The notes beneath the pieces are model-generated. The model ran no database searches. It had not been told where the DNA came from and worked only from the letters and a program-made list of their open reading frames with translations. Source: Fidelibacterota bacterium (lineage in GTDB: Bacteria > Fidelibacterota > Marinisomatia > Marinisomatales > TCS56). Taken from it: DNA of 64,000 nucleotides. The translations under genes were made by a program, and so were the position numbers. Below are positions 4,253 to 62,553 of this stretch, piece after piece; the first letter of the stretch is position 1; each line of letters opens with the position of its first letter. The stretch is from contig JBDRBK010000115.1 of NCBI GenBank assembly GCA_043822705.1, forward strand, positions 49,993-113,992. Reading direction: 5' to 3'.

Positions 4253-4986
4253 TGCACCGGTTCCAGATGATCCTTTTGTACGCTGCCGTACCAGGTGGGT
4301 CGGCCGGAGGCGGCGTAAATCGCGCGTGCCAATGCGCTGGCCTGACCGGGATGGGCGTCGGTCTTATTGACGAAATAGGTGCGCGGAATGGCCGGCGGTA
4401 TTTTTGATGAGTAGCCCTTTTCCGAGGTGACGACCCGGGTAATGAAAGCAGGCGTCAGCACGAAATTGTCGGCGATGCCCCAGAATTCGCGGAAGCGCTC
4501 CGGGCGGTGTACCAGTCCGTCGGCCAGGGTCGTGCCGACCACATCGGCGCCGACGATGACGATCACCCGATCGAAGAAATCCGGGACCATCGGGTCGTGA
4601 TCGCAATGGACCTTCAACGGCCGGTTGCGGGCACCGTCGCATTCAACAATCGTGACATCGGCCTGGTCTTTGAATTGCTCCAATTCATCCATGGTGATGC
4701 CGTCCACTTTGTGGGCATTCAGGCAGGTGCCCATCACGCACAGGGGATTGTGGCGGGCGAACCAGGTGGCTAAATCGCCGCTGCCGATTTCATCCCGGCA
4801 GATAATTTTAGGGTCGGTATGAAATGCAGATTTGGTAATCGAGGTCAACAGGACCCGGCCAAACACTTGCACCAGTTCCCGGCCCAGCCGTTGCTGCAGA
4901 CCGGTCTTGCCGCCGCCGCCCAGCAGGGCGATGCAGGCACCGGCAACCGGGGCACCATCGGGGAAGGCCAGAGCGGTAAAGTCCAT
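4249..4986 (-). CDS. yqeC: Selenium-dependent molybdenum hydroxylase accessory protein YqeC
   Basis: P-loop-like LLGGGGKTGL near the N-terminus, ~245 aa, and its position next to mocA and XDH-family genes. Confidence 0.75.
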   Translation of the reverse strand: MDFTALAFPDGAPVAGACIALLGGGGKTGLQQRLGRELVQVFGRVLLTSITKSAFHTDPKIICRDEIGSGDLATWFARHNPLCVMGTCLNAHKVDGITMDELEQFKDQADVTIVECDGARNRPLKVHCDHDPMVPDFFDRVIVIVGADVVGTTLADGLVHRPERFREFWGIADNFVLTPAFITRVVTSEKGYSSKIPPAIPRTYFVNKTDAHPGQASALARAIYAASGRPTWYGSVQKDHLEPVQ

Positions 4987-11124: not shown

Positions 11125-12449
11125 TGGATCTGATTCTGACCAACGGCCGGATCGCCAGTCCCGGTACCAATCCCGGGCTGATCGAGGAAGGTTTTATTGC
11201 TATCCAGGATGGCGTGATCGTCGCCGTCGGCGCCGCGTTGCCGGAAGGCCTGTCCGCCGGACAGGTCGTCGATCTGGCCGGTAAACTGGTGTTGCCGGGC
11301 ATGATCAACGCTCACACCCATTTATATTCGGCTCTGGCCTTGGGGATGCCCTGGCCGGCGGCGCCACCGCAGAATTTCGTCGAGAAACTGCAGAAAATCT
11401 GGTGGCGGCTGGACCGAGCCCTCGATACAGAATCCACCCGCGCCTCGTTTGCGGCGGGACTGTTGGATTGCCTCCACAGCGGGGTGACCACGGTGATCGA
11501 CCACCATTCCAGTCAGAATTTCATCGGCGGCTCGCTGGAGCTGCTGGCGGAAGTGGCCGAAACCATCGGAATCAATGTGGCGGCGGCCTTCGAAATCACC
11601 GATCGCAACGGTCCCGCCGGATTCCAGGCCGGACTGCAAGAAAACCTCGATTTTTTTAATAATTATCGCAATCACCCCAACATCCGGCCGCTGATCGGTT
11701 TGCATGCATCATTCACCCTGTTGGACGAGTCGTTGGCGACAATTCGCCGGACCCTGGGTGATGATTGTGATTGGGGTGTTCATATCCACGTTTCCGAAGA
11801 TCAGGCCGACGAAACCGACGCCCGCAATCGTGGCTACCGCTCGGTGATCGACCGCCTGCAAGCCTTCGATCTGATCAATCAGTGCAGCCTGATTATTCAC
11901 GGTCTTCACATGCCGCCGGAGGATGTGGATATTCTGGCGCAGACCGGTGCCCTGCTGGTGCATAATCCCACCTCGAATGCCAACAACCGGGTCGGCATTT
12001 TGAGTGCCGCTACCGTCAACAGATTAAAAGCCGGACTAGGTACCGACGGCATGCAGGCCAATCTGCTGAACGAGGCCAAGGAAGGTACCCTGATCCGCAG
12101 CCACAGTCTGACGGGCGGGGCCGACAACCTGGATTACAGCCAACTCTTGTTCGATCACAATCCGGCGATCGCCTCGCGAATCTTCGGGCGGTCGATCGGC
12201 AAAATCCAGGTGGGGGCTTCCGCCGATCTGGCGATCTATGATTATTCCCCCCGGACGGAACTGTCCGCCGCCAATCTGAGCGGCCACCTGCTGTTCGGGC
12301 TGGATCGGCCCGAAGCGGTCATTATCAACGGAAAGTTTAAACTGCGTGACCGGCAATGCGTCACGCTCGACGAAGATGAACTACTGCACAAAGCGCGGTT
12401 CCAGTCACGGAAATTATGGGCCGCCATGGAACAATTAACTGTGAGATGA
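11124..12449 (+). CDS. ssnA: Putative aminohydrolase SsnA
   Basis: Amidohydrolase fold ([19 protein letters not shown]). Its start overlaps the XDH stop (TGATG), and it sits next to ygeY/ygeW as in E. coli. Confidence 0.8.
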
Positions 12450-13684
12450 AAATGGATTTTATGAAAATCAAACACCAGGCCGAATTTTACCGGTTCGACA
12501 TGGTCCGCTTTCTGCGGGACATGATCGCGATTCCCGGTGAAAGCGGCCAGGAGGCAGCGGTGATTAAACGGGCCGCCGAGGAAATGGAAAAAGTCGGCTT
12601 CGACCGCATCGAGATCGACGATTTCGGCAACCTGCGCGGCTGGCTGGGGCATGGCAAACACCTGATTGCCATGGACGGCCATATCGACACGGTAGGCGTC
12701 GGCAATCGTGCCAACTGGGAGTTCGATCCCTATTCCGGTAAAGAGGATGATGACTGTGTCTATGGTCGCGGCGCCTCCGATCAGGAAGGCGGGATTGCAG
12801 CGATGGTCTATGCCGGAAAAATTATCAAGGACCTGGGTCTGGAGGATGACTATACCCTGGTGGTAACGGCCACGATCCAGGAAGAGGACTGTGACGGTCT
12901 TTGCTGGCAGTATATCATCGATAAGACCGGACTGCGGCCGGAGTTCGTGGTGATCAGCGAACCGACCTCGTGCCGGGTCTACCGCGGCCAGCGCGGCCGG
13001 ATGGAAATCAAGGTCAGCACCAGCGGAATCAGCGCCCACGGTTCGGCGCCGGAACGGGGCGATAACGCTATTTACAAGATGGCGCCGATCCTGGCCGAAC
13101 TGGAGCAGTTGAACGGTCGCCTGGCCGATCACGATTTTCTGGGCAAGGGATCGCTGACAGTGTCGGAAATTTTCTTTTCGTCACCCTCGCGCTGCGCCGT
13201 GGCCGATGGCTGCTCGATCTCGATCGACCGACGCCTGACCTTCGGCGAAACCATGGAATCGGCCCTGGCCGAAATCCGGTCCCTGCCGGCGGTCCAAAAA
13301 GCCGGTGCCGAAGTGGCGCTCTACGATTACGACCGGCCGTCCTATCGCGGCGTCCGCTACCCGACCGCCTCCTATTTTCCGACCTGGTTGATCGACGCCG
13401 ATCATCCCGCCACCCGGACCGTGGTGGATGCTTACCGCGGACTGTTCGGCAACGAACCGCTGGTCGACAAATGGACATTTTCCACCAACGGTGTAGCAAT
13501 CATGGGCAAGTACGGGATTCCCTGCATCGGTTTCGGTCCCGGCCACGAAGACCAGGCCCACGCTCCCAACGAGCGCACCTGGAAAGAAGAGCTGGTCACC
13601 GCCGCCGCCGTCTACGCCACCATCCCCAAAATTTATGTGAACAATTATGCTGCTGGTGCCAAAACCGGAAGCGAGCTGGAGTAA
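12446..13684 (+). CDS. ygeY: YgeY-family selenium-metabolism-linked M20 peptidase/hydrolase
   Basis: [28 protein letters not shown] and the M20 dimerisation region. ATGA overlap with the ssnA stop. Confidence 0.85.
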
Positions 13685-19075: not shown

Positions 19076-19522
19076 GTGTCAACATATACGCAAATATATT
19101 ATCATATCATTTTTTCGACTAAAAACAGGGTGCCCTGCCTTAAAGAAGCGGGCCGTGATGAATTATTCAAATATATCTGGGGTATTGTTAAAAATAAGGA
19201 TTGCCACCTGTATCGAATTAATGGCGTTGAGGACCACGTTCATATATTGATTAGCCTGAAACCAGCGGTTGCCCTCGCTGATTTGGTTAAAGATATTAAG
19301 GTAGCAACCTCAATTTGGATAAAAGAACGGAATATTTTTCCACGATTCGAAGGCTGGCAGGGGGGATATGCCGCCTTTACATATGCGGACAAAGATAAAA
19401 ACACCGTAATCAATTATATAAAAAACCAGGTTGAACATCATCGGAAGAGAAGTTTCCGCGAAGAGGTCGAAGCTCTGTTAAAAGAACATGGTGTTGATGT
19501 TGATGAAAGGTTTTTGGTTTGA
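19076..19522 (+). CDS. IS200/IS605-like Y1 (HUH) transposase of the REP-associated (RAYT) type
   Basis: 148 aa with YHIIFSTKNR, the HUH motif HVHILIS, and a C-terminal Y in INYIKNQVEHH. Flanked by structured repeats. Confidence 0.8.
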   Translation: MSTYTQIYYHIIFSTKNRVPCLKEAGRDELFKYIWGIVKNKDCHLYRINGVEDHVHILISLKPAVALADLVKDIKVATSIWIKERNIFPRFEGWQGGYAAFTYADKDKNTVINYIKNQVEHHRKRSFREEVEALLKEHGVDVDERFLV

Positions 19523-19705: not shown

Positions 19706-22700
19706 ATGTCCGATAAATTATTCACCTGCCCGATCGATCGACTGCTGAGCTGGATACTGGCCGAGGAGCGTCAGGGATCAATCTTTGGCATTGATAAGAA
19801 CCTGTTTTTTATGCCTGCCGCCACCGATCCGTTCCGGATGCGGCGTTACGACCAGCTTCTGGAAACACCTGTCGGTGTGGCGGCGGGTCCCCACACCCAG
19901 CTTTCCCAGAATATTATATCCGCCTGGCTCACCGGCGCCCGCTACATCGAACTGAAAACCGTCCAGACATTGGATAAAATCGAGGTCGCCAAACCCTGCA
20001 TCGATATGCAGGACGAAGGCTACAACTGCGAATGGTCCCAGGAATTGAAACTGCGCCGGTCCTTCGACCAGTACCTGGATGCCTGGATTCTGATTCATGT
20101 TCTCCGCCGGCATTTCGGCTGGGAGTTCGGTATCGGTCCCGGTGTCATCTTCAACATGAGCGTGGGTTATGATCTGGCCGGTATTAAAAACGCCAATGTC
20201 CAGGAATTCCTCGATTTAATGGAGAACTGCCAGCCATTGCTGGAAGCCAAACTGGAACAGATTGAAACAATCTATCCGGCCACTCATGACTTAGGAATAG
20301 CGTCCCGTCTGTCCGATAACGTGACCCTGTCCACCATGCATGGCTGTCCACCAGATGAGATCGAGCGAATCGCCCGCTATTTGATTGAAGAACGCCGCCT
20401 GCACACGGCGGTGAAACTGAATCCGACTCTGCTGGGACCCGACAATCTGCGGCAAATCCTCACCAGCAATCTGGGCTTCAGGAATATCACCGTTCCCGAT
20501 CAGGCTTTCGAGCACGATCTGAAATATGATCAGGCTCTCACAATTATTCGCAATTTGCAAGCCAGCGCCGGAAAAGCGGGGGTGGAATTCGGACTGAAAC
20601 TCACCAACACACTGGAAGTACTGAATCAGAAGGAATTGTTTCCCGGTAGCGAGGAGCAGGCGTACCTGAGTGGTCGCGCGCTCCATCCCCTGAGTGTCAA
20701 CTTGGCTGCTAAACTGCAGACTGAATTTGATGGCGCTTTGGATTTATCGTTTTGCGCCGGTGCCGACTGTTTTAATATCGCTGATCTCGTTGCCTGCGGA
20801 CTGGCCCCGGTTACCACCTGCTCCGACCTGCTCAAGCCGGGAGGCTATGGCCGGTTGAAACAGTATATCGGCCAACTTGCGGATCGATTCTCCAAGCGGT
20901 CAGCGGTCAGCGTTGAAGATTTTATCAATATTACAGCCGGGCATCCCGGCTCAACCAGTCAGGCCGCGCTGAAGAATCTACAGGCTTACGCCAAAGTTGT
21001 GCTCACTAATGATAGCTACCAGCGGGAATCACCGTTCTACCCGTCGGTGAAAACCCTCAAGCCGCTTCCGGTATTCGATTGCATTTCCGCCCCCTGCACC
21101 GCGGCCTGCGCTACCGATCAGGGTATCCCGGAATACATGTACCACACCGCCAAAAGCGATTTCGATCGGGCTTATGCCACAATTTTAAAGACCAACCCGT
21201 TGCCAGGTATTACCGGTTATGTCTGCGATCACCTGTGCCAGACCAAATGCACCCGCATCAACTACGACCGGCCGCTGCTGATCCGGGAAATCAAACGTTT
21301 TGTCACCGAACACGGTCAGACCGGGAATACACCTATAAAGATCACCTCGAATGGCAAACAAGTAGCCGTTATCGGTGGAGGACCATCGGGATTGTCATGT
21401 GCCTATTTCCTGGCATTGCAGGGTTTTGCAGTGGAAATATTTGAAGCCAAGGCCAACCTGGGCGGCATGGTTTCCGGGGCGATTCCACGGTTTCGACTGG
21501 GCGATGACAGCGTTCAAAATGATCTCAATCTAATCACCGGACTGGGCGTGCAAATCCATTACAGCCGTACTATTGATCAGGACGAATTCCAGCGCCTGCA
21601 GACCGAATATGACTATGTCTATCTGGGTCTGGGGGCCCAGGCCAGCCGCAAACTGAATATCCCCGGTGAAGACCACAACCGGGTTTTGGATCCCCTGAAA
21701 TTTTTGTCCGCCGTGAAGAATGGTATATCCCTGCCGATGGGGTCGGAAGTAATTATTATCGGCGGTGGTAACACCGCCATGGATGCCGCCCGCACCTCGT
21801 TACGATTGGTCGGTGAAGGGGGAACAGTGACCATCGTTTATCGGCGCACCATCGACCAGATGCCGGCGGACTGGGAAGAGGTGGCGGCCGCCCAAGCAGA
21901 GGGGATTGCCATCCACGAGTTGCTGGCGCCGGTTTTTATTGAAGAACAGGGCGGTAAGTTGGTACTGATCGTACGCCGCATACGACTGGGTGCCAAAGAC
22001 AGCAGCGGACGTCCCCGGCCGGTGGATATTCCCGGCAGCGATTTCGCATTGGACTGTGATTACCTGATTCCCGCCGTGGGGCAGTCGGTGGCAGTGGATT
22101 TTCTGGATGATGCCGATTTGCGGGTTGATCCGCGGACCAAGGCTACCAGCCGGCCAAAGGTATATGCCGGTGGTGACGCCGTCCGGGGGGCCTATACCAT
22201 CATCGCCGCCGTGGGCGACGGCCAGCGCGCCGCTGCTGCAATTGGTGAACAGGTCACGGGGACTACGGTTAATTTTGATACGGGCCTGGCCGGAAAAGCG
22301 TCGGCGGAAGTACAAGCTCAGCGCTTTGCTACGCGCGATTATGGTTCGATAACCAGCGGATTTGAACCGCACCACGATCGTCCGGTCAAGACATTGCTGA
22401 CGTCGGAACAGGCCTGGACCGAGGCCGCCCGCTGTCTGTACTGTGACGAATTTTGCGATATCTGCGTTACCGTCTGCCCCAACCGCGCCAACCTGGCTTA
22501 TCCGGTGGATAAGATCGCCATTGATATTCCGATTGTTACGCAATTAGGCGGCAAAACCGCAATCAAAGCAGGCAGCCGCTTGATAGTGGATCAGCCGACC
22601 CAGATCGCCAATATTGCCGATTTCTGTAACGAATGCGGCAACTGTACGACGTTTTGTCCCACCGCCGGTGCCCCCTGGCGGGACAAACCGCGCATCTGCC

Positions 22701-22999
22701 TGTCGGAGGCCGGTTTCGCCGACCTGGTCGAAGGTTATTACCTGCGGCTGGACCGGCTGGACTTCAAATCTCCCGCCGGCAGCACCAGTTTGCAAATCAT
22801 AGACGAGCAACTGGTCTGGGAAACACCTCAATTGACGGTGACATTTGACAAAAAGACATTGGAATTGACCCGGGTGGACTGGAAAACAACACCCGACCAA
22901 TCAATCTCACTGGAGCCGGCGCTGAGAATGGCGGTTATCTGGAAAGGGTTGCGTGAAATATCGATATCCGGTTTACCATTGATAAACCAGGAGCACTGA
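19706..22999 (+). CDS. ygfK: YgfK-type Fe-S/flavin oxidoreductase (annotated in E. coli as putative selenate reductase subunit)
   Basis: 1097 aa. It has an N-terminal DHODH/DPD-like TIM barrel, a central GltD-like domain (VIGGGPSGLSCA, IIGGGNTAMDAAR) and C-terminal ferredoxin-type Cys clusters (CDICVTVCP, CNECGNCTTFCP). Confidence 0.85.
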   Translation: MSDKLFTCPIDRLLSWILAEERQGSIFGIDKNLFFMPAATDPFRMRRYDQLLETPVGVAAGPHTQLSQNIISAWLTGARYIELKTVQTLDKIEVAKPCIDMQDEGYNCEWSQELKLRRSFDQYLDAWILIHVLRRHFGWEFGIGPGVIFNMSVGYDLAGIKNANVQEFLDLMENCQPLLEAKLEQIETIYPATHDLGIASRLSDNVTLSTMHGCPPDEIERIARYLIEERRLHTAVKLNPTLLGPDNLRQILTSNLGFRNITVPDQAFEHDLKYDQALTIIRNLQASAGKAGVEFGLKLTNTLEVLNQKELFPGSEEQAYLSGRALHPLSVNLAAKLQTEFDGALDLSFCAGADCFNIADLVACGLAPVTTCSDLLKPGGYGRLKQYIGQLADRFSKRSAVSVEDFINITAGHPGSTSQAALKNLQAYAKVVLTNDSYQRESPFYPSVKTLKPLPVFDCISAPCTAACATDQGIPEYMYHTAKSDFDRAYATILKTNPLPGITGYVCDHLCQTKCTRINYDRPLLIREIKRFVTEHGQTGNTPIKITSNGKQVAVIGGGPSGLSCAYFLALQGFAVEIFEAKANLGGMVSGAIPRFRLGDDSVQNDLNLITGLGVQIHYSRTIDQDEFQRLQTEYDYVYLGLGAQASRKLNIPGEDHNRVLDPLKFLSAVKNGISLPMGSEVIIIGGGNTAMDAARTSLRLVGEGGTVTIVYRRTIDQMPADWEEVAAAQAEGIAIHELLAPVFIEEQGGKLVLIVRRIRLGAKDSSGRPRPVDIPGSDFALDCDYLIPAVGQSVAVDFLDDADLRVDPRTKATSRPKVYAGGDAVRGAYTIIAAVGDGQRAAAAIGEQVTGTTVNFDTGLAGKASAEVQAQRFATRDYGSITSGFEPHHDRPVKTLLTSEQAWTEAARCLYCDEFCDICVTVCPNRANLAYPVDKIAIDIPIVTQLGGKTAIKAGSRLIVDQPTQIANIADFCNECGNCTTFCPTAGAPWRDKPRICLSEAGFADLVEGYYLRLDRLDFKSPAGSTSLQIIDEQLVWETPQLTVTFDKKTLELTRVDWKTTPDQSISLEPALRMAVIWKGLREISISGLPLINQEH

Positions 23000-24494: not shown

Positions 24495-25217
24495 ATGTGG
24501 TCTTCGCTGAAAACCATTCACGTTCCGATTTCACTGGCTGCGGCCGCTGAGCTGGCGGTAAAACGCGGTCATGCCGTATTCGCCGGTGGCAGTTACCTGG
24601 CCGCGGAGCGCGATCCGGCCGTCACCACGCTGGTGGACATCAATCATCTGATCACGAGAAAAATCAAGGTCACCAAAGGACAAATCCGCTGTGGCGCCGG
24701 TGTCAGTTTACAGCAGTTGATCGACCAGCTGGAGACCGCAGACGACTTAAAACTGGCGACCGCCGCCCGCTGGTCCTGCGCCTCGAAAAATATCCGCAAC
24801 CAACGCACCATCGGCGGTGAAATCAGTCGCAGCCGGACCGATTCCGAGCTGGTGGTTCTGCTGCAGGCGTTGGCAGTCCGACTTGACCGGGCCGGTGACC
24901 GGATTATTACCGAGTTAATCATTGAACATAACGATGTCGGCGCCGTTGCTCTTGAGCGTTTCGCGCTGTTGCCGTCGGCGCCGGCCTTTGTCATTGTCGC
25001 TGCCGTACGGCGGAAGCATAATTATGATATTGCCGTTGGCGGCAGCGCAACCACGATCACTACTGCCGCAGTGGTGAAATCGGATTTCACCGACGACTGG
25101 ATCGACAGCTTCGCCAGGGCGGTGGCCGGAAAATTCCGGGCCGATGAGGTCGGTTCCCGGAAATATAAACAATCCGTGGTCGCCACCGGCCTGCGGCGGG
25201 CGCGAGGGGTCTTATGA
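24495..25217 (+). CDS. ygfM: Short FAD-binding subunit (YgfM-like) of XDH-family enzyme set 2
   Basis: 240 aa with FAGGSYL and RTIGGEI motifs. It directly precedes the 2Fe-2S and Mo subunits with overlapping stops and starts. Confidence 0.7.
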   Translation: MWSSLKTIHVPISLAAAAELAVKRGHAVFAGGSYLAAERDPAVTTLVDINHLITRKIKVTKGQIRCGAGVSLQQLIDQLETADDLKLATAARWSCASKNIRNQRTIGGEISRSRTDSELVVLLQALAVRLDRAGDRIITELIIEHNDVGAVALERFALLPSAPAFVIVAAVRRKHNYDIAVGGSATTITTAAVVKSDFTDDWIDSFARAVAGKFRADEVGSRKYKQSVVATGLRRARGVL

Positions 25218-25651
25218 CCATCGAATTTATCTTGAATGACCGGCGCGTTGCAGTTGAAGCGGAGCCGGGCGCCAACCTGTTGGAAATGCTGCGGGAGCGG
25301 GGTTTGTTCAGCGTCAAGCATGGCTGCGATCACGGCGAATGCGGCGCTTGCACCGTGCTGCTGGACGAACGGGCCGTTAATGCCTGCCTGGTGCTGGCTT
25401 TTTCAGTGGCCGGGAAGAGGGTGGAGACGGTGGAGAAATTCAGCAGTCACGACCACTTGCACCCGCTGCAGGAAAAATTCATCGCCAGCGGGGCGATCCA
25501 GTGCGGTTTCTGCACGCCGGGGATGATCCTGGCGCTGGAAGCGCTACGGCGGGAGAAAGCGAATCCCACCGAAAGCGACGTCCGCGATGCCCTGGCCGGC
25601 AATCTCTGCCGTTGTACCGGCTACGTTAAACCGGTGGAGGCGGCCCAATGA
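25214..25651 (+). CDS. (2Fe-2S)-binding small subunit (set 2)
   Basis: CDHGECGACTV and QCGFCTPG...CRCTGY. Confidence 0.9.
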   Translation: MTIEFILNDRRVAVEAEPGANLLEMLRERGLFSVKHGCDHGECGACTVLLDERAVNACLVLAFSVAGKRVETVEKFSSHDHLHPLQEKFIASGAIQCGFCTPGMILALEALRREKANPTESDVRDALAGNLCRCTGYVKPVEAAQ

Positions 25652-27933
25652 AGGTGATCGGCCAACAGACCGCCCGCATCGACGGCCGTGCCCTGGCTAC
25701 CGGTCAGCCGGTATTCGCCGACGATATTGAATTAAAAAACGTGCTGCACTGTAAGGTGTTGCACAGCACCGTGGCGCATGCCCGGATCAAAAAAATTGAT
25801 GCCGGCCGCGCCCTGCGGCGGCTCGGGGTGGTGGCGGTCTATACGCATGCCGATTTTCCGCGGCATTATTACACCACCGCCGGTCAGGGGTATCCCGAAC
25901 CGGGTCCCCGGGATTACCGCATCCTGGACGACACCGTCCGCTACGTGGGTGACCGGGTGGCGTTGGTGGTGGCCGAATCGCTGGCCGCTGCCGAAGCTGC
26001 CTTGACGGCAATTGCCGTGGAATATGAAGAATTACCGGCGGCATTCGACCCGCGCGAAGCGCTGAACGGTAAGGTGGTAATCCATCCCGAGGCAGGCAAG
26101 ACCGGCATTCACGAAGTCGGCCGCAACGTTGCCGCCCACATCAGCGCCGAAGTTGGCGATGTGGAGGCGGCATTCAAGTCGGCACCCCACGTATTTGCCG
26201 GGGAATACAGTACGCCCTTCGTCCAGCAGGCCCATATCGAACCGCATATCTGCCTGAGCTGGCGCGACGAGCACAACCGGATCGTGATTCGGACCGCCAC
26301 CCAGGTACCCTTTCATGTGCGGCGGATCGTGGCCGAGGTTCTGAATATACCCGTGGGACAGGTGCGGGTGATCAAGCCCCGGATCGGCGGCGGCTTCGGC
26401 GGCAAACAGGAAATATTGAACGAGGAACTGGTGGCGGCGGTGACGCTGAAAACCGGTCGTCCGGCCCGGCTGGAATACACCCGGGAAGAGGAATTTTACG
26501 CCGCCCGCTGCCGGCACCCGCAGATCACCAATTTCCGGATCGCCGTGGATGACGACCACTGCATCCAGGCCATCGACCTGAAAATACTGGAAAACACCGG
26601 CGCCTATGGCGCCCATTCACTGACGGTGATGTCGGTGACGGCCCAGAAGACGCTGTCGCTGTATCGGGCACCCAATCTGCGGGTCCACGGCGATGCGGTC
26701 TACACCAACCTGCCGATCGCCGGGGCCTACCGTGGCTATGGCGCGCCCCAGGGTTTTTTCGGCCTGGAATCGCTGCTGGATGAGATTGCCGATCAATTGG
26801 GCATCGATCCGGTGGAATTTCGCCATAAGAATTATGTGCGGGTGGGCGACGACCTGCCGATTGCCGCCATTCTGGGCGAAGGCCGGGAGGGTTACCCGGC
26901 CCAGGTGCGCTCATCGGGATTGCGGGAGTGCCTGGAGGAAGGCAAAAAACTGATCGGCTGGGACAAACTGCGCAACGCCGCCAGGAGCGGTGCGATCCGG
27001 CGCGGCGTCGGCGTGGCGGCGGTGGGGCAGGGCAGCGGGATTCCCGGGATCGACATGGGTTCGGCCTTTATTAAAATGAACGAGGACGCCAGTTTCAACC
27101 TGCTGGTGGGCGCCACCGACCTGGGGACCGGCTCCGACACGGTGCTGGCCCAGATCGCCGCCGAGGAACTGGGCGTAGCGGTGAATAAAATCATTGTCTA
27201 CTCGTCGGACACCGACCACACCCCCTTCGATACCGGCGCCTATGCTTCCAGCACGACTTACATCTCCGGGGCGGCCGTCAAAAAAGCGGCGGCGGCGGTG
27301 AAACGGCAGATTCTGGAACTGGGTAAAAAGTTATTGTCCGTGGATCAGGCGGAAATCCGGGACGGGCAGGTAGTGGCCCCGGGTGGCGAGAGCATATCCT
27401 TTGGAGAAATCTGCACCAAAACCTTTTATACTGATGAGCAGACCCAGATCATGGCCACCGCCAGCCACTTGAGTTTCGATTCGCCCTCGCCCTACAACGC
27501 CACATTTGCCGATGTGAGCGTCGATACCGAAACCGGGCTGGTAACCGTGAACAAGGTGGTATCGGTGACTGACATCGGCCAGGTGATCAACCCGCAGATG
27601 GCGGAGGGGCAGACCGAAGGGGGCATCCCCCAGGCGTTGGGGATGGCGTTGACCGAATTCATGGTTTTCGACGATAAAGGCCGGCCGCGGAATACCGACT
27701 TCAACCGTTACCATATTTACACAGCCATCGATATGCCTGAGATCGTGGCCCGATTCATCCCTACCCACGAGCCCACCGGACCCTACGGCGCCAAGGCGGC
27801 GGCGGAGATACCGATCAATGGTCCCGCCCCGGCGGTGCTGAATGCGATTTACAATGCCTGCGGGGTGCGGATTCGGGAGCTGCCGGTCACGCCGGAGAAG
27901 GTGCTGGCGGGATTAGTGAGGAGTAATAAGTAA
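25648..27933 (+). CDS. XDH-family molybdopterin-binding large subunit (set 2, XdhD-like)
   Basis: RIDGRALATG, GGGFGGKQ, AYRGYGAPQ and a C-terminal ...ELPVTPEKVL. Confidence 0.9.
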   Translation: MKVIGQQTARIDGRALATGQPVFADDIELKNVLHCKVLHSTVAHARIKKIDAGRALRRLGVVAVYTHADFPRHYYTTAGQGYPEPGPRDYRILDDTVRYVGDRVALVVAESLAAAEAALTAIAVEYEELPAAFDPREALNGKVVIHPEAGKTGIHEVGRNVAAHISAEVGDVEAAFKSAPHVFAGEYSTPFVQQAHIEPHICLSWRDEHNRIVIRTATQVPFHVRRIVAEVLNIPVGQVRVIKPRIGGGFGGKQEILNEELVAAVTLKTGRPARLEYTREEEFYAARCRHPQITNFRIAVDDDHCIQAIDLKILENTGAYGAHSLTVMSVTAQKTLSLYRAPNLRVHGDAVYTNLPIAGAYRGYGAPQGFFGLESLLDEIADQLGIDPVEFRHKNYVRVGDDLPIAAILGEGREGYPAQVRSSGLRECLEEGKKLIGWDKLRNAARSGAIRRGVGVAAVGQGSGIPGIDMGSAFIKMNEDASFNLLVGATDLGTGSDTVLAQIAAEELGVAVNKIIVYSSDTDHTPFDTGAYASSTTYISGAAVKKAAAAVKRQILELGKKLLSVDQAEIRDGQVVAPGGESISFGEICTKTFYTDEQTQIMATASHLSFDSPSPYNATFADVSVDTETGLVTVNKVVSVTDIGQVINPQMAEGQTEGGIPQALGMALTEFMVFDDKGRPRNTDFNRYHIYTAIDMPEIVARFIPTHEPTGPYGAKAAAEIPINGPAPAVLNAIYNACGVRIRELPVTPEKVLAGLVRSNK

Positions 27934-33304: not shown

Positions 33305-34186
33305 ATGAATATGCGACGATTACTGTTAGCGGGATTAACGGCCTTTGGTCTGGCGGCGGGGGCGCCACCGGTGTTCGAAGAACTGGTGTTTTCACTCTGG
33401 CCGGAATACGATCATCCCGGCGTCCTGGTGATTTACAGCGGCCGGCTGGCGGCGGAAAACCTGCCCCAGGTGATCGAATTCCGGGTTCCCGCGGCGACCG
33501 AGCAGGTCCTGGCGGCCGGTGTGCTGGATACCACCCGGGAATTGCGGACCGTGACAATCGAATCCCGCGGGGCGGAGAAATGGGTCAAACTGGAACTGCA
33601 ACGACCCGCTTTTCATTTCGAATTCTACTACAATCCTTTCGGTGATACGCATCAACGGCAGGTCGACTATGAACTGGAATTCGGTCATCCCGTGCCGGCC
33701 TTTATGCTGGCGGTCCAGAAACCGATCATGGCCGAAAATTATACCCTGCCCGAAACCGACATGGAATCTTTTCAGGATCAGCACGGCATGACTTTTTTCC
33801 GGAAACAAATGCCGGCCCTGAAAGCAAATACCGTGAAAAAATTATCCTTCAGCTATGAGAACCATACCGCCGAGACCAGTATCCAGCAGTTACAGAAAAT
33901 GCTGGCGAGTGAAAATGGCGCCCTGGGCGGCGGAATGCCCGGGGGGGCGGAACGTCCGCTGACCGACCGCCATCGTCTGCCGCTGCTGGAACCGTTGCTG
34001 GTGCTGGCGCTGGCAGCAATCGTTTTAGGCGGCCTGTTCTACCGGCAGCGTCGACGGGAAGGGACGGAAGCCGTAGCTTCCGAAAAGACCGGCCGCTTCT
34101 GTACCAAATGCGGTCAGCCGGTGAAACAGCTGGATAAATTCTGCGCCAATTGCGGAGCCCGACAGCATGCTGCCGATCCTGTTTAA
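33305..34186 (+). CDS. Hypothetical secreted/membrane protein with a C-terminal cytoplasmic zinc ribbon
   Basis: Signal peptide, a late TM helix (LLVLALAAIVLGGLFY), then CTKCG...CANCG. Confidence 0.6.
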   Translation: MNMRRLLLAGLTAFGLAAGAPPVFEELVFSLWPEYDHPGVLVIYSGRLAAENLPQVIEFRVPAATEQVLAAGVLDTTRELRTVTIESRGAEKWVKLELQRPAFHFEFYYNPFGDTHQRQVDYELEFGHPVPAFMLAVQKPIMAENYTLPETDMESFQDQHGMTFFRKQMPALKANTVKKLSFSYENHTAETSIQQLQKMLASENGALGGGMPGGAERPLTDRHRLPLLEPLLVLALAAIVLGGLFYRQRRREGTEAVASEKTGRFCTKCGQPVKQLDKFCANCGARQHAADPV

Positions 34187-34919
34187 AATCGGACCGCTGA
34201 AAATCCACAGTTACGGCCTGGCCCTGGTGCTGGCCTTCTATGCCTGCTATTATCTGCTGCACTACGATCTCAAGCGACTGAAATACGATCCGCAACTGGC
34301 GACCGATATTATCTTTTTCGGGGCGGTCTGCGGCATCCTGGGATCGAAAATCTGGTACCTGATCGAGAATATCGGCGCGGTGCTGGCCGATCCGGTGGGA
34401 TTGATTATTTCCGGTTACGGCCTGGTTTTCTTCGGCGGTCTGATCGGCGGCACGCTGGGTGTGACCTGGGTGCTGCTGCGGAATAAGCTGGACTGGCTGA
34501 CTTTCGGCGACATCGTGGCGCCGCTGCTGATTTTGGGTTATGCCATCGGCCGGACCGGCTGCTTCATGAACGGTTGTTGTTACGGCGTCACCACTGCTCT
34601 GCCCTGGGGCATTCACTACCCGCACCTGGGACCGGGGATTCAGGTGCACCCGACCCAGTTGTACGAACTGACGCTGGGCCTGTTGATATTTCTGTTTTTA
34701 TGGCGCCGCCGGCTGCGGCTGAAAACTACCGGCAGCCTGTTTTTTACCTACCTGGTGCTGGCCGGAGCGGAACGGTTTCTAATCGAGTTCATCCGGATTA
34801 ATCCCAAATACCTGTTCAACCTGTCCGGCGCGCAGTGGTTCGCCCTGATCATTATCGCGATCGGAGCCTATTTTCTGAAATACCCGCCGGGAAAGGCTTA
34901 CGGATCAGCGGCGAATTGA
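34167..34919 (+). CDS. lgt: Prolipoprotein diacylglyceryl transferase
   Basis: GPLKIHSYGLALVLAF, the GRTGCFMNGCCYG motif and HPTQLYE. Confidence 0.9.
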   Translation: MLPILFKIGPLKIHSYGLALVLAFYACYYLLHYDLKRLKYDPQLATDIIFFGAVCGILGSKIWYLIENIGAVLADPVGLIISGYGLVFFGGLIGGTLGVTWVLLRNKLDWLTFGDIVAPLLILGYAIGRTGCFMNGCCYGVTTALPWGIHYPHLGPGIQVHPTQLYELTLGLLIFLFLWRRRLRLKTTGSLFFTYLVLAGAERFLIEFIRINPKYLFNLSGAQWFALIIIAIGAYFLKYPPGKAYGSAAN

Positions 34920-48755: not shown

Positions 48756-49492
48756 GCAACGAACTGTTATTTATCCTCCAGACCATCATCGGACTCAGTT
48801 TTACGCTGATCGCTTTCCGGCTCGGAAAAATCTGGCTGTACGGATATATCGCCATGGCGATTGTGCTGGCGAATATTTTCGTCACCAAGCAATTTGACCT
48901 GTTCGGACTGTCCGCCACCGGCGGTAACGTGGTCTACGGATCGATTTTCCTCGTGACCGATCTGTTGTCGGAGCACTGGGGCCGGGCCGCTGCCCGCCAG
49001 GCCGTGGTGATCGGATTTTTCGCGGCCCTGTTTTACCTGGTCATGTCGCAATTTATCCTGCAGTTCACGCCCAATTCGGTCGATTGGGGCGCCAGTGCCG
49101 GCATGGAGGCGATTTTCTCCGCCGGACCGGCCATCGTGATCGCCAGTCTGGTAGCCTACCTGGTATCCCAGTTTCACGACGTCTGGGCCTTCCACCTGTG
49201 GAAGACCAAACTGGATGGTCGCCATCTCTGGTTGCGTAATAACCTGAGCACTATGGTCAGTCAGGCCCTGGACAGCCTTATTTTCGCCGGATTAGCGTTC
49301 GCGATTCTGCCGGCGCTGTTCGGTCGGACCGAGAATATTTTACCATCGGCGGCGCTGACGGAAGTGATTATCACCACCTATTTATTCAAACTGCTGGTGG
49401 CAGTGATTGACACACCGTTTCTATATTTGAGCTATCGTCTGCAACCGGCCGAACTGCGTAATGGCGCGGTCCGGCCCCAGGAATCCGATTGA
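48752..49492 (+). CDS. yhhQ: Queuosine-precursor transporter (YhhQ/VUT family)
   Basis: Multi-TM protein with GGNVVYGSIFLVTDLLSE and SQALDSLIF motifs. Confidence 0.8.
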   Translation: MSNELLFILQTIIGLSFTLIAFRLGKIWLYGYIAMAIVLANIFVTKQFDLFGLSATGGNVVYGSIFLVTDLLSEHWGRAAARQAVVIGFFAALFYLVMSQFILQFTPNSVDWGASAGMEAIFSAGPAIVIASLVAYLVSQFHDVWAFHLWKTKLDGRHLWLRNNLSTMVSQALDSLIFAGLAFAILPALFGRTENILPSAALTEVIITTYLFKLLVAVIDTPFLYLSYRLQPAELRNGAVRPQESD

Positions 49493-49515
49493 ACGGAACC
49501 GAAAAATCAGGAGAA

Positions 49516-50556
49516 ATGATGAAGAAATCCCTTCTTTGGACCGGAGTACTGCTGTTGATCGCCTGTACGACCAAGGCGCCCCAATATCCCTGGGCGAATC
49601 TGACGTTCCCGGAAGCCCAGGCCGCTGCCGGTGAAAAGCTGATCATGCTGGACTTTTACACCGAATGGTGAGGGTGGTGCAAACGGCTGGATGCCGATGT
49701 ATTCCCCGATCAGAATGTGATCGATTTCGCCGCTGAAAATTTAATCAGCCTGAAAATTGATGCCGAAAAAGATGCCGGCCCGGAGCTGCGTGATCGTTTT
49801 CGTCTGCCAGGCTATCCCACAATTGTATTCACCAACGCCGCCGGCAACGAAGTGGACCGGATCGTCGGTTATCGTCCGGTCGATATTTTCCTGGCCGAGT
49901 TGACCAGAATCCGGGCTAACCGCGGCACCATTGCCGACCTGACTGCCCGCTTCGAGGCCAGTCCCGCGACCGACTCGCTGGCGGTGCGGATTGCGGAAAA
50001 ATATGAGGAGCGCCAGGATCGGCTGGCGGCGCTGTCTTACTGGTTGAAGGCGCTGAATATCCCCGATGGCGATCAGGAAATGGCCCGTTACCGGGTCGCT
50101 TCCAATCAAACCCTGCTGACAGAATCGGACCGGTCCCTGAAGGAATATCTGGCCAGTAGTGCCGATGAGACTTATTTCGCCGATGCCTATAATGTACTGC
50201 AGCGGTTTTACCGTAGTCAGAAGGACACGTCAGCCGAAGTGGATATCTATGTCCGGTTGATGGAATTTCTGGAGCACGAGTCCGCCGCCACTTCCGCCGA
50301 TCTGAACGGCTATGCCTGGCGGATGTCGCAACTGGGAATCAACCTCGAAGACGCTCTGATTAAGATTCGTAAAGCGGTCGCTCTGGCTGCTGACAAATTG
50401 CCGGAAGATCGGGCCGGCTTAATGGATACGGAAGCGGAGGTGCTCTGGAAACTGGGGCGTAGCGCTGAAGCGCTGGCGATCATCGAACAGTGCATCAAAC
50501 TTCAGCCGGAAGACCAGTATTTCAAGGATCAGAAAGCCAAGTTTCAGAAACAGTAA
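49516..50556 (+). CDS. Thioredoxin-fold lipoprotein with a TPR-like C-terminal region; the in-frame UGA at 49669-49671 is read as selenocysteine (U-G-W-C redox motif)
   Basis: ORFs 49489-49671 and 49717-50556 are in the same frame. Read-through gives LIMLDFYTEW-U-GWCKRLD...GYPTIVF, a complete Trx fold. Lipobox LLLIAC, with AGGAG upstream of the ATG at 49516. A candidate SECIS-like hairpin lies at 49684-49696. Confidence 0.7.
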
Positions 50557-50581: not shown

Positions 50582-50616
50582 CGGATGCCATCAGCCGGTT
50601 GGGCTGATGGCATCCG
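50582..50616. terminator. Perfect 15-bp-stem hairpin between convergent genes
   Basis: CGGATGCCATCAGCC-GGTTG-GGCTGATGGCATCCG. An AT-rich tract lies on the minus-strand downstream side. Confidence 0.7.
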
Positions 50617-55546: not shown

Positions 55547-55764
55547 ACTGTTTACTCCAGAATTTCTGGTTTTAAACCTGTCGCCACCAGACAAGATCGA
55601 CTGGCACTAATTAAATGTACCAATTAATCTCACTTATAACCAAAAGGATTGAAATTGACCGACTGTGATCTAATCGTGCTCAACCAGTGGTGTTCAGCAA
55701 TCGTTGGAATTGTACAGGTTATAATCAGCGCAACCTGTACGGTCTGTGGTTTAATTTCCGGCCA

Positions 55765-57054
55765 ATGAAAATCATTGCTATCGAACCGGACAGCCTGGGG
55801 GCCGAACTGGAACTGCAACCCGGAGATGAATTGGAAGCAATCAACGGTGAGAAGGTGCGCGATATTGTTGATTTTCGGTTTCGGATCGCCAGCGAAGAGG
55901 TCACCCTGCGGTTTCGCAGCGGTGAGACGGTGGCGGAATTCGATATCGAAAAGGATTATGACGACGATCTGGGCCTGACGTTTGAAGATTTGAAAATCCG
56001 CAAATGCGCCAACGACTGCATCTTCTGTTTCGTCGACCAGAATCCCTCCGGGATGCGCCCGGCGCTGTACTTTCGTGATGGCGACTACCGCCTGTCTTTT
56101 CTGCACGGTCATTATGTGACGCTGACCAACATGGGTCCGAAGGAACTGCAGCGGGTAGTGGACCAGCGCCTGTCGCCGCTGTACATCTCGGTGCATGTCA
56201 CCGATTCCGATAAACGGCTGGCGATGTTTCTCTACGGCAAGGACGACAAACTGCTGGACAAGCTGGAATTTCTGACCGCCAACGGCATCGCCCTGCATAC
56301 CCAGATCGTACTCTGTCCCGGCTGGAACGACGATGCTTTTCTGGAGCAGACCCTGGCCGATCTGGCGCGCTTCTCGCCACGGATACTGTCGATCGCGATC
56401 GTCCCGGTGGGCCTCACCAAACACCGCGAAGGACTGCCATTCATCCCGGCGGTGGATCAGGAATACGCCCGGAATTTCATTGCTACCGCCTGTCAGTTGG
56501 ATCGGCAGTACCGCAGTCCCGCAGGCGAACGGCTGATTTTTCTCAGCGATGAATGGTTCATCCGGGCGGGCGTCAATCTACCCGATTCCGCTTACTATGG
56601 CGATTTCGCCCAGGTCGAGAACGGCGTGGGGCAGGTCCGGGATTTTCTGAACACCTGGAAGGCCGATTTCAAGCCGGCCAAAATCCGATTGAAGCAACCG
56701 ACCAGGATTACCATCGGTTCCGGGTACCTGATCGAGCCGGTGTTTCGTGATCAGTTTGTACCGCACCTGCAGGCGGTTGACAACCTGGCGGTGGATTACG
56801 TGCCGATCCGCAATGATTTCTATGGTGAATCGGTAACGGTCACCGGCCTGCTGACCGGTGGTGATATCGTGGCCCAGTTGCGGGGACGGGAACTGGGGGA
56901 TATGGTTATATTCAGTGAACGAATTTTAAGCGAAACCGGGGTCGTGACCCTGGATGATATGAGTCTGGAAACAATGACAACAGAATTAGGCGTGCCGGTG
57001 AAAGTGGTGGGCGACCATCCGCGGGAATTTTTCAGGGCGGTGAGCGGTGGCTAA
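55765..57054 (+). CDS. DUF512 family protein (PDZ + radical-SAM-like domain)
   Basis: N-terminal PDZ (LQPGDELEAINGEKV) and a CIFCFVDQ Cys motif. Lies immediately upstream of der, a known conserved pairing. Confidence 0.7.
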   Translation: MKIIAIEPDSLGAELELQPGDELEAINGEKVRDIVDFRFRIASEEVTLRFRSGETVAEFDIEKDYDDDLGLTFEDLKIRKCANDCIFCFVDQNPSGMRPALYFRDGDYRLSFLHGHYVTLTNMGPKELQRVVDQRLSPLYISVHVTDSDKRLAMFLYGKDDKLLDKLEFLTANGIALHTQIVLCPGWNDDAFLEQTLADLARFSPRILSIAIVPVGLTKHREGLPFIPAVDQEYARNFIATACQLDRQYRSPAGERLIFLSDEWFIRAGVNLPDSAYYGDFAQVENGVGQVRDFLNTWKADFKPAKIRLKQPTRITIGSGYLIEPVFRDQFVPHLQAVDNLAVDYVPIRNDFYGESVTVTGLLTGGDIVAQLRGRELGDMVIFSERILSETGVVTLDDMSLETMTTELGVPVKVVGDHPREFFRAVSGG

Positions 57055-61311: not shown

Positions 61312-62553
61312 ATGAAACGAAGAATCCGCTATCCGGAATATTTTGCCGATTTTGCCTGTGTCGGTGGTGCCTGTGAGGACTCCTGCTGCAATCAGTGGCG
61401 GATTTACCTGGACCAGGACACCTTTGAAAACTATAGCCGGATCGAAGAGACGGAGCTGCGCCGGCTCCTGGATGAATATGTGGAGTCGAACCGCTCCAGC
61501 CAAAGTGAAGCCCGCTACGGCACGATCCGTTTGACGGCCGACCGCCGCTGCCCGTTCCTGACGCCCGATTGTTTGTGTATTCTGCAGCAGCGCCGGGGAG
61601 TAGCGGCCCTGTCCCAGACCTGCCTGACTTACCCGCGGGTGTTCAACAGCGTGAACAATATTTTGGAGGGCGCTGCGGAAATTTCCTGCCCCGAAGCGGC
61701 CCGGCAGGTGCTGCTGAATCCTGCCGGTATCCGGCTTATTGAAGGTGAACTGGACCTTGATCAGCGCTTTGCCCTGAACAATGCCGTCAATTCGGTCGGA
61801 AGCGCGGCGCAATTCGCGCTGGCCCGGTATTTTCAGGAGGTCCGGGATTTTGCCATCGACCTGGTGCAGGACCGGCGGATTTCCCTATCGGACCGGCTTA
61901 CCCTGCTGGGTATGGTCAGCAGTAAAATACAGGCGTCGATTGACAGCGGGGAAGGGCCGGCGATTCCGGCCATACTGGAAGAATACGTGCAGTTGCGGCT
62001 CCAGCCGGGCTTATCCGATGAGCTGGCGCGGATACCGGTCAACGCTACCCGCCAGCTCACACTGCTGAAAGCGCTGCTTGATGAAAAAAATGCCCGCGGC
62101 ACCAATATCGCCGCCTTCCGGGAATGCCACGAGCAGTTCCTCGGCGGCTTGGGTTTCAATCGCGATCTGTCACCGGACCAAATCGTTGACTGCTACCATA
62201 CCAATTACGGCCGATATTTTGTTCCCTTTATGACGGAAAAAGAGTACATCCTGGAAAATTACTGCGTCAATTACCTGTTCCGTTACCAGTTCCCGATATT
62301 CGAGAAAAATGACTATCAGAATATCTTTAAGGCGGCTGTGCGGCTGCTGCTCAATTATGCCTTGTTGAAGCTGTACCTGATCGGTCTGGGCGGCTTTCAC
62401 GGCGGACTGACTGACGAACTGGCCGTCAAATGGACCTACAGTTTCGGCAAGGCGGTGGAGCATGACAGCGGTTTCATGACCGACATGATCGATTTTATGG
62501 AACACAACGGCCTCATGACACTGGCACATTTAACGGTGCTGATCCGGAATTAG
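61312..62553 (+). CDS. FliB-like lysine-N-methylase family protein (Cys-rich N-terminus)
   Basis: FACVGGACEDSCCNQWRIYLDQDTFENY resembles the flagellin lysine methylase family signature, from memory only. Confidence 0.55.
   Translation: MKRRIRYPEYFADFACVGGACEDSCCNQWRIYLDQDTFENYSRIEETELRRLLDEYVESNRSSQSEARYGTIRLTADRRCPFLTPDCLCILQQRRGVAALSQTCLTYPRVFNSVNNILEGAAEISCPEAARQVLLNPAGIRLIEGELDLDQRFALNNAVNSVGSAAQFALARYFQEVRDFAIDLVQDRRISLSDRLTLLGMVSSKIQASIDSGEGPAIPAILEEYVQLRLQPGLSDELARIPVNATRQLTLLKALLDEKNARGTNIAAFRECHEQFLGGLGFNRDLSPDQIVDCYHTNYGRYFVPFMTEKEYILENYCVNYLFRYQFPIFEKNDYQNIFKAAVRLLLNYALLKLYLIGLGGFHGGLTDELAVKWTYSFGKAVEHDSGFMTDMIDFMEHNGLMTLAHLTVLIRN

Follow-up and report, generated by a model that had tools for sequence, protein, structure and literature searches.

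The gene described here lies in a 64,000-nucleotide stretch of DNA from a Fidelibacterota bacterium (assembly GCA_043822705.1, contig JBDRBK010000115.1), which we call the window and whose positions are used throughout. It contains an in-frame UGA codon at 49669-49671 that very probably encodes selenocysteine (Sec) through the mechanism of SelB and a selenocysteine insertion sequence (SECIS). We also consider it highly probable that 49516/49519-50556 is one gene, whose product is an exported, probably lipid-anchored thiol:disulfide oxidoreductase with the motif W-U-G-W-C. An earlier inspection of the nucleotide letters and their translations (the sequence-only reading) had proposed a selenoprotein in which UGA stands at the first Cys of a W-C-G-W-C motif, and this proposal is supported by the codon found at that position across species, by an RNA hairpin next to the codon and by the fold of the protein.

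Two open reading frames (ORFs) of the forward strand, 49489-49671 starting with TTG and 49717-50556 starting with GTG, share one frame and are separated solely by the TGA at 49669-49671. These coordinates, the common frame and the single TGA separator had been given correctly before; the TTG at 49489 did not hold as the true start and was ruled out, as it overlaps the stop codon of the preceding gene (TGA, 49490-49492). The gene would start at the ATG at 49516 or at 49519. The latter is more likely, because it gives an MKKSLLW... terminus as in the homologues and is placed 5 nt past a GGAG (49510-49513), the likely ribosome-binding site. The complete gene on the forward strand comprises 346 codons from ATG 49516, or 345 from ATG 49519, one in-frame UGA included, and ends with TAA at 50554-50556; its extent agrees with the translation, the Pfam matches and the alignment to homologues of full length (340-365 aa). 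Translation across the TGA yields MMKKSLLWTGVLLLIACTTKAPQYPWANLTFPEAQAAAGEKLIMLDFYTEW-[UGA]-GWCKRLDADVFPDQNVIDF...LPGYPTIVF... and then about 210 more residues, with KLIMLDFYTEW directly before the UGA, which reproduces exactly the peptide (KLIMLDFYTEW-[UGA]-...YPTIVF) of the sequence-only reading. The UGA is residue 52, at the first (nucleophilic) position of U-G-W-C. The resolving cysteine of this U-x-x-C motif is Cys55 (TGC, 49678-49680), which is invariant in alignment A2, as are columns 10-11 of alignment A3, and the cis-Pro codon of G-Y-P-T (Pro101, 49816-49818) is invariant in alignments A1 and A2. Because the thioredoxin domain recognized by Pfam crosses the TGA, neither ORF alone contains the whole fold, as had been claimed. 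When the window was scanned for TGA codons with at least 50 stop-free codons on either side, 49669-49671 was the sole site inside a real gene; the scan, which is blind to Sec residues close to protein ends, thus revealed no further selenoprotein gene. Together with the recurrence of the stop at this column in other species, this places the arrangement far beyond chance.

A search of a 5.8-billion-protein collection recovered 398 relatives, 120 of which were listed. These relatives are of two classes: full-length proteins of 340-365 aa, alignable end to end and mostly with Cys at the UGA column (C-x-W-C), and many proteins of about 240-300 aa that start just past the redox motif. In the full-length relatives Cys sits opposite the UGA (P0002, P0006, P0008, P0010 and others), the correspondence that the sequence-only reading had expected. 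Loci were sampled with a profile led by a Sec form, taking one genome per species; of 360 relatives, the 80 top-ranking loci were analysed, almost all of them from metagenome-assembled genomes of Marinimicrobia, Neomarinimicrobiota or Fidelibacterota. Across 85 sequences the codon at this column was TGA in 67, TGT in 10 and TGC in 8, with no TAA, TAG or other sense codon, a clean Sec/Cys column that carries no information on the efficiency of Sec insertion. Removal of duplicates left 82 non-redundant sequences, from 64 TGA species and 18 Cys species. Upstream of the TGA, the frame is open for about 50 codons in the TGA species and is conserved; it encodes a signal peptide rich in Met and Lys, in most cases a lipobox Cys, then YPW and KLIMLDFYT(D/E)W. 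Loci L001 and L002 share the gene order of the window: ACCA, 4HBT and Vut_1 precede a stub of 50 aa and the 'truncated' gene, after which comes GFA. They translate across the site as MRKLIIGTGVFLILSC...KLIMLDFYTDS*SWCKRLDADVF, and the complete Fidelibacterota chromosome CP070656.1 (locus L003/L044) translates as ...MLMLDFITDN*SWCKRLDAVTF. The TGA form is also present in a second complete genome, CP070638.1 (L060). A column confined to TGA and Cys codons, behind an intact upstream frame, is the classic Sec/Cys signature at the level of sequence.

Public databases present the gene as proteins of 268-290 aa, labeled 'hypothetical' or 'tetratricopeptide repeat protein', and as stubs of 49-50 aa; among the 120 matches listed, most were N-truncated fragments of 240-300 aa. 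That gene callers would split or truncate the gene had been anticipated, and these fragments and stubs bear it out. The public annotation matches the idea of a broken gene, either a pseudogene or a 50-aa lipoprotein stub followed by an N-truncated tetratricopeptide repeat (TPR) protein starting at GTG 49717. We give this idea virtually no chance. The supposed break is always TGA, at one codon, in 64 species whose proteins are 31-60% identical and conserved on both flanks, and neither TAA nor TAG stands there in any locus. Moreover, the proposed downstream starts vary by species and would halve the thioredoxin fold. The Sec/Cys column and the upstream frame conserved across species thus rule out an error of sequencing, a pseudogene and a pair of independent genes. 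More specifically, TGC or TGT misread as TGA is excluded by the recurrence of TGA in 64 species. Nor do the homologues genuinely end at the site, as the DNA of the N-truncated entries has an intact, conserved upstream frame; both possibilities had been named in the sequence-only reading as ways in which it could fail.

Immediately 3' of the UGA, the mRNA can form a bacterial SECIS-like stem-loop. A hairpin CGGC-UGGAU-GCCG with GG in its loop, extensible by further pairs, had been pointed out before; it was found at 49684-49696, its first nucleotide being the 13th after the UGA, and extends to 49672-49706 on the forward strand, beginning 1 nt past the codon. As folded by ViennaRNA, the extended hairpin has 13 bp, one internal loop and one bulge. 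Its apical stem CGGC/GCCG (49684-49687 with 49693-49696) closes the apical loop UGGAU (49688-49692) and is followed by a 6-bp middle stem (49676-49681 with 49698-49703) and an outer GGG/CCC stem (49672-49674 with 49704-49706), which is lineage-specific and paired in only about 30% of sequences across the family. The minimum free energy (MFE) was -22.6 kcal/mol for a 62-nt piece (z = -2.4), -17.1 kcal/mol for 45 nt and -14.3 kcal/mol for the hairpin alone. The consensus for bacterial SECIS elements (bSECIS) comprises a loop of 3-9 nt with G in its first two positions, an upper stem of at least 4 bp, 16-37 nt between UGA and loop and an MFE of at most -7.5 kcal/mol (PMC13188914). The window hairpin, with a 5-nt loop, G-G at loop positions 2-3, a 4-bp upper stem, a spacing of 16 nt (the bottom limit of the range) and -17.1 kcal/mol, agrees with all four bSECIS criteria. 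It resembles the fdhF-type SECIS of E. coli and the bSECIS consensus in being a stem-loop directly 3' of the UGA within coding sequence, with a small loop, G-G at positions 2-3 and a distance of 16 nt; it differs from them in that the core conserved throughout the family is limited to the apical stem of 4 bp and a middle stem of 5 bp, the latter conserved in part, and in having no Rfam match.

The hairpin was then compared across species in a codon-registered, ungapped alignment. The apical stem was fully paired in 62 of the 64 TGA forms and in 2 of the 18 Cys forms (Fisher p = 5e-13), and in their MFE folds 47/64 TGA forms and 2/18 Cys forms agreed with all four bSECIS criteria. Stem variants were compensated (CGAC/GUCG, CGUU/AACG, CAGC/GCUG, CUGC/GCAG, UGGC/GCCA), with double changes at all four pairs, and the apical loop was UGGAU, UGGAC or UGGAA in 63/64 TGA forms; several Cys forms encode Leu by TTA, with loss of the loop G-G. 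The nine-pair structure made up of apical and middle stems had 87.1% of its cells paired. Thus, the suggestion that the hairpin is a SECIS is in agreement with the published bacterial consensus, with covariation and with the tie to TGA forms.

Could this hairpin have no function as RNA and simply follow from codon bias and from conservation of the K-R-L-D-A peptide? The stem is indeed made of R-L-D-A codons, conserved at the protein level, and when the 3' partners were shuffled as a control, the gain was small (87.1% against 84.1% paired). We nevertheless consider this explanation extremely improbable. Cys forms with the same or similar peptides lack the stem, and the split persists among sequences encoding R-L-D-A, where 47/49 TGA forms and 2/5 Cys forms have it paired (p = 0.004). 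Synonymous codons are nearly frozen in the TGA forms: Arg is CGG in 47/49 despite there being six codons, Leu is CTG in 49/49 and Ala is GCC in 47/49. Substitutions in the peptide (R to Q or L, A to V) are accompanied by joint changes in the two arms of the stem. The covariation score of the nine-pair structure was matched by none of 500 shuffles, and slid registers fell to 17-51% pairing. From the split between TGA and Cys forms, the compensation, the frozen codons and the shuffle and slide controls, the comparative data argue that the hairpin is a real RNA structure linked to TGA and not a side effect of the peptide.

One set of loci (L031-L034, L039-L045 and L049-L051) constitutes a distinct subfamily with the motif (Y/F)E(F/V)xAKW-U-G(S/A)C-xRLDAETF, in which SIP replaces GYP in the cis-Pro loop. 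There, 13/13 are TGA forms. Eight of them have UGGAC as their apical loop, four have UGGAU, and L042 has UGUUA.

Several observations weigh against decoding of the UGA as Sec through this hairpin. At least one bSECIS criterion is failed by 17/64 TGA forms under unconstrained MFE folding. The family-wide consensus computed by RNAalifold is confined to the 4-bp apical stem, every pair of which shows double changes, and the position of this stem within conserved R-L-D-A codons means that its conservation is partly protein-driven. Rfam gave no match to the hairpin when the whole window was searched at gathering thresholds, and a permissive scan of 49560-49800 yielded only a chance snoRNA match (E = 0.29). 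As to the decoding machinery, NCBIfam annotation of essentially all large ORFs in the 64-kb window revealed no SelA, SelB or SelD; LepA, which matched the SelB model in the GTPase domain only, was rejected as a SelB. No tRNA-Sec was found in the window, which has zero tRNA genes, nor in 401 kb of related loci (three tRNA-Gly), an uninformative result at about 4 kb per genome. Finally, a 2016 survey of bacteria, the only one we found that includes this phylum, places SAR406 single-cell genomes under 'orphan SelD' only (PMC5029168).

This failure to find Sec machinery in the 64-kb window and the 401 kb of related loci would also fit a readthrough of the UGA that does not involve Sec, either by near-cognate tRNA-Trp or tRNA-Cys or by reassignment of the codon as in genetic codes 4 and 25. 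In that case Trp, Cys or Gly would occupy the position, and the only effect of the hairpin would be to delay the ribosome or to impede the release factor. Public gene calls do place Trp at the Sec column in four 'full-length' entries (P0011, P0014, P0028, P0029). The DNA behind P0029 has TGA at this column (loci L004 and L005; L004:591-593), and its Trp therefore stems from a gene call under code 4. We judge readthrough of this kind highly unlikely. The stop codons of 35 confidently annotated genes of the window are TGA in 19, TAA in 13 and TAG in 3, and TGA is internal in 0/34 other confident genes; UGA is consequently a normal stop in this organism, and its recoding is specific to 49669-49671. 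The sense codons found at the column encode only Cys, never TGG or GGN, and a CxxC redox site would be inactivated if its nucleophile were replaced by Trp or Gly. In addition, the spacing of the hairpin, the size of its loop and the loop G-G fit a SECIS bound by SelB.

The genomic context is consistent with selenium use. The sequence-only reading had noted the selenium-linked genes yqeC, ygeY and ygfK, and all three scored above their NCBIfam cutoffs, so that this context is real. They belong to a selenium-dependent molybdenum hydroxylase/purine-catabolism cluster at 3650-27933, with a MocA/YgfJ-like gene (3650-4252, reverse strand), YqeC (4249-4986, reverse strand; 120.5 bits, cutoff 73), XdhA-like (8833-11124), SsnA-like (11124-12449, just under its cutoff), YgeY (12416-13684; 667 bits, cutoff 321.5), YgfK (19706-22999; 891 bits, cutoff 835) and a second XDH-like trio (FAD, Fe-S and Mo subunits; 24495-27933). 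Further members are an adenine deaminase, a YgeW/OTC-like carbamoyltransferase, two pyridoxal phosphate enzymes, XDH Fe-S and FAD subunits and an 8-oxoguanine deaminase; neither YqeB nor SelD was seen in the window around the cluster. The selenium-dependent molybdenum hydroxylase trait requires SelD. For this reason the YqeC/YgeY/YgfK/SsnA-like cluster suggests that the organism uses selenium and that SelD, and with it selenophosphate, should be available. Within the cluster, between an XDH FAD subunit and ygfK, lies an ORF for an IS200/IS605-family transposase (19076-19522; 76 bits, cutoff 55).

At its N terminus the protein has a signal peptide with the lipobox L-I-A-C (49516-49566, forward strand; MMKKSLLWTGVLLLIAC), the Cys of which is residue 17 (TGT, 49564-49566). 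By pattern match, MMKKSLLWTGVLLL-IAC conforms to the lipobox [LVI][ASTVI][GAS]C. Cys17 is nearly invariant in alignment A2, a lipobox-like Cys occurs within the first 35 aa in 54/82 species, and the window encodes Lgt at 34167-34919. Export and lipid anchoring of the protein are thus predicted. In a subclade formed by L009-L012 and L015, the lipobox Cys is absent (...LLSTLIGQQQ(F/Y)PW...), and these forms are probably soluble periplasmic proteins cleaved by signal peptidase I rather than lipoproteins.

The signal peptide is followed by a thioredoxin-fold domain of the DsbD-gamma/2kuc type, about residues 24-132 (49585-49911, forward strand), that runs across the UGA. Searched with U replaced by C, it matched Pfam Thioredoxin_2 (PF13098) over residues 37-129 (E = 1.3e-12; 48.4 bits, gathering score 27), Thioredoxin (PF00085; 38.2 against 23.5 bits) and Thioredoxin_7 (PF13899; 34.9 against 27), and a DsbH-type domain also exceeded its gathering score. 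The hallmarks of the fold are present, namely C/U-x-x-C in the form of U52-G-W-C55 and the cis-Pro in the form of the invariant P101 (G-Y-P-T). Consequently, the earlier description of a complete thioredoxin-like fold, with the stop at the first redox Cys and a downstream YPT, was accurate. The remainder, about residues 135-346 (49918-50553, forward strand), is an all-helical TPR-like repeat domain, to which Pfam gave weak TPR_8, TPR_2 and TPR_4 matches. An AlphaFold2 model was built for P0002, a Cys homologue 57% identical to the window protein (pLDDT, the predicted local distance difference test, 93.3; pTM, the predicted template modeling score, 0.84). It shows a thioredoxin fold at 25-130, with the redox motif at the junction of strand 38-44 and helix 49-57, and 13 helices at 135-340 with helix pLDDT above 94. 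By Foldseek, the thioredoxin domain of this model matched 2kuc (TMt 0.80), DsbD-gamma 1uc7 (0.77), DsbH (0.69) and also 2fwg, and the remainder matched TPR superhelices.

Among solved thioredoxin domains, the nearest is 2kuc, a putative disulphide-isomerase of Bacteroides thetaiotaomicron (phmmer E = 2.4e-20 over residues 25-122). It superimposes on the P0002 model with a root-mean-square deviation (rmsd) of 1.9 Å at 38% identity. With the window protein it has ...DxxTxWCGPCKRL... and flanking sequence in common; it differs in having Cys (WCGPC) and in consisting of one 130-aa domain, to which no TPR is attached. The best NCBIfam match was the selenoprotein TsoB (NF045694), whose C-terminal thioredoxin domain is fitted by window residues 20-132 (E = 1.5e-17). 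Membership in TsoB was rejected: the score was 62.9 bits against a cutoff of 805, only 119 of the 572 model positions, all C-terminal, were covered, and the rhodanese/DsbD fusion is absent. The Sec motif of TsoB is UxxxxU (PMC13188914). DsbD was likewise rejected, the NCBIfam match to its C-terminal thioredoxin domain lying far under the cutoff.

Among bacterial selenoproteins, those with a thioredoxin fold and a UxxC motif form the most frequent class. That proteins of this type with an in-frame SECIS exist is well established, and to a specialist the gene is expected rather than surprising. We take the CDD entry cd02953 to be the DsbD-gamma family. This entry is given for 'Trx-like 2' in Table 2 of the Global Ocean Sampling (GOS) selenoproteome (PMC2398784), and a 2026 review of prokaryotic selenoproteomes lists 'Thiol:disulfide interchange protein' as PF13098 (PMC13188914). 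UxxC thioredoxin-like selenoproteins have been catalogued from 2004-2008 onward, DsbD-gamma-like 'thiol:disulfide interchange' types included (PMC2398784, PMC13188914), so the sequence-only reading was justified in invoking them. The window protein resembles these families in its thioredoxin fold, with PF13098 as top Pfam match, in its DsbD-gamma type, in having Sec first in UxxC and in the SECIS directly downstream, a likeness that rests on the published descriptions of the families and not on reference sequences. It differs in its additional TPR-like domain of about 210 aa and its lipoprotein signal; neither the TPR fusion nor Marinimicrobia is mentioned in PMC13188914 or PMC2398784. The balance of forms also differs, with 64 Sec and 18 Cys species here against 22 Sec and 2,098 Cys for GOS Trx-like 2 (PMC2398784).

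In domain order the protein recalls E. coli CnoX/YbbN (PDB 3qou and 3qdn), a thioredoxin domain followed by TPR, which gave the top whole-chain Foldseek matches (E = 3e-6 and 8e-6). The TM-score was only 0.25-0.30, with an rmsd of about 22 Å and 16% identity, and the arrangement of the domains differs. CnoX is cytoplasmic and has a non-canonical SxxC active site, with no canonical CxxC. The window protein fits neither feature, since it carries a lipobox-type signal peptide and its UxxC motif is complete. We found no evidence for common descent of the Trx-TPR fusion with CnoX/YbbN.

We propose the following mechanism. The mRNA hairpin right after the UGA, with its apical loop UGGAU displayed at a distance of 16 nt on the 3' side of the codon, would act as a bacterial SECIS and recruit SelB with GTP and Sec-tRNA(Sec), so that UGA is read as Sec and translation does not terminate. 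The signal peptide would then direct export of the protein, with acylation of Cys17 in the lipobox. Once in the periplasm, the DsbD-gamma-like domain may reduce or exchange disulfides, or sulfenic or selenenyl-sulfide adducts, on client proteins. Sec52 would attack client disulfides or oxidized thiols and Cys55 would resolve the intermediate, the chemistry passing through a Sec52-Cys55 selenenylsulfide. Clients are probably bound by the TPR-like domain, an analogy drawn from the Trx-TPR chaperedoxin CnoX/YbbN, whose counterpart in the periplasm this protein would be. The DsbD-gamma-like fold makes DsbD/CcdA a candidate electron donor. Our confidence in this role as an envelope reductase, that is, in the location, the direction of the reaction, the clients and the electron donor, is lower than that in the identity of the encoded residue and of the gene.

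The distribution of the two residues also suggests a history for the family. Sec forms dominate the sampled species (64 against 18 Cys), the sample being the best 80 of 360 matches to a profile led by a Sec form. In a neighbor-joining tree, itself crude and drawn from this sample, Fitch parsimony placed Sec at the root and gave 12 separate all-Cys clades. Repeated Sec-to-Cys reversion would be the simpler history, because one positionally identical SECIS is common to all Sec forms. Repeated gain of Sec from Cys is a live alternative, given that R-L-D-A codons can make the stem by synonymous changes alone. In bacteria, Sec-to-Cys reversions are regarded as rare (PMC13188914). Two Cys forms (L037:1651-1698 and L048:1621-1668, with TGC and TGT, respectively) have kept the full CGGC-UGGAU-GCCG hairpin and have TGA forms as their nearest relatives; their hairpins may be fossil SECIS elements left by a recent Sec-to-Cys change. 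In L013, the contig ends just before the redox codon; the hairpin is kept, and the sequence closely resembles the Cys homologue P0002. Tentatively, and with rather more doubt than confidence, we suggest that these proteins make up an uncatalogued family peculiar to Marinimicrobia/Fidelibacterota, whose members are exported as lipid-anchored 'periplasmic chaperedoxins' (Sec-Trx plus TPR), and in which Sec and a single homologous SECIS are ancestral and dominant (~78% of sampled species) and from which about a dozen Sec-to-Cys reversions arose, some with a fossil SECIS (L037, L048).

Between the selenoprotein gene and the convergent GFA gene, a perfect 15-bp hairpin, CGGAUGCCAUCAGCC-GGUUG-GGCUGAUGGCAUCCG (50582-50616; -32.6 kcal/mol for an 84-nt piece), is a probable bidirectional terminator of the two genes. 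Its U-tract is poor; a consensus terminator scan made no call there because the tail is only UUU. Elsewhere in the window, ORF 541-1002 has a weak, sub-threshold match to TigB, a family of precursors of ribosomally synthesized and post-translationally modified peptides (38 bits, cutoff 70), and 55687-57054 encodes a TIGR03279-family radical SAM protein scoring under its cutoff. A homologue of the flagellin lysine-N-methylase FliB is encoded at 61312-62553 (268 bits, cutoff 85), with no flagellar genes noted nearby in the window.

Searching the literature on Marinimicrobia, Marinisomatota, SAR406 and Fidelibacterota together with selenocysteine or selenoprotein, we found no description of the family and no report of Sec decoding for the phylum. 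The gene suggests that Marinimicrobia/Fidelibacterota decode Sec; in the literature found, an 'orphan SelD' is all that is recorded for them (PMC5029168). Re-annotation corrects a systematic error and restores a complete redox protein throughout a phylum of abundant ocean bacteria, in most species of which public pipelines split or truncate the gene. The selenoprotein would be placed in the cell envelope, fused to a TPR domain that binds clients. If the suggestion of a periplasmic chaperedoxin family with ancestral Sec is true, the family would provide the first comparative evidence of Sec decoding in this abundant marine phylum and a counter-example to the rarity of bacterial Sec-to-Cys reversions (PMC13188914). 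Its many switches between Sec and Cys, and the single SECIS common to its Sec forms, also make this family well suited to the study of how Sec is gained and lost.

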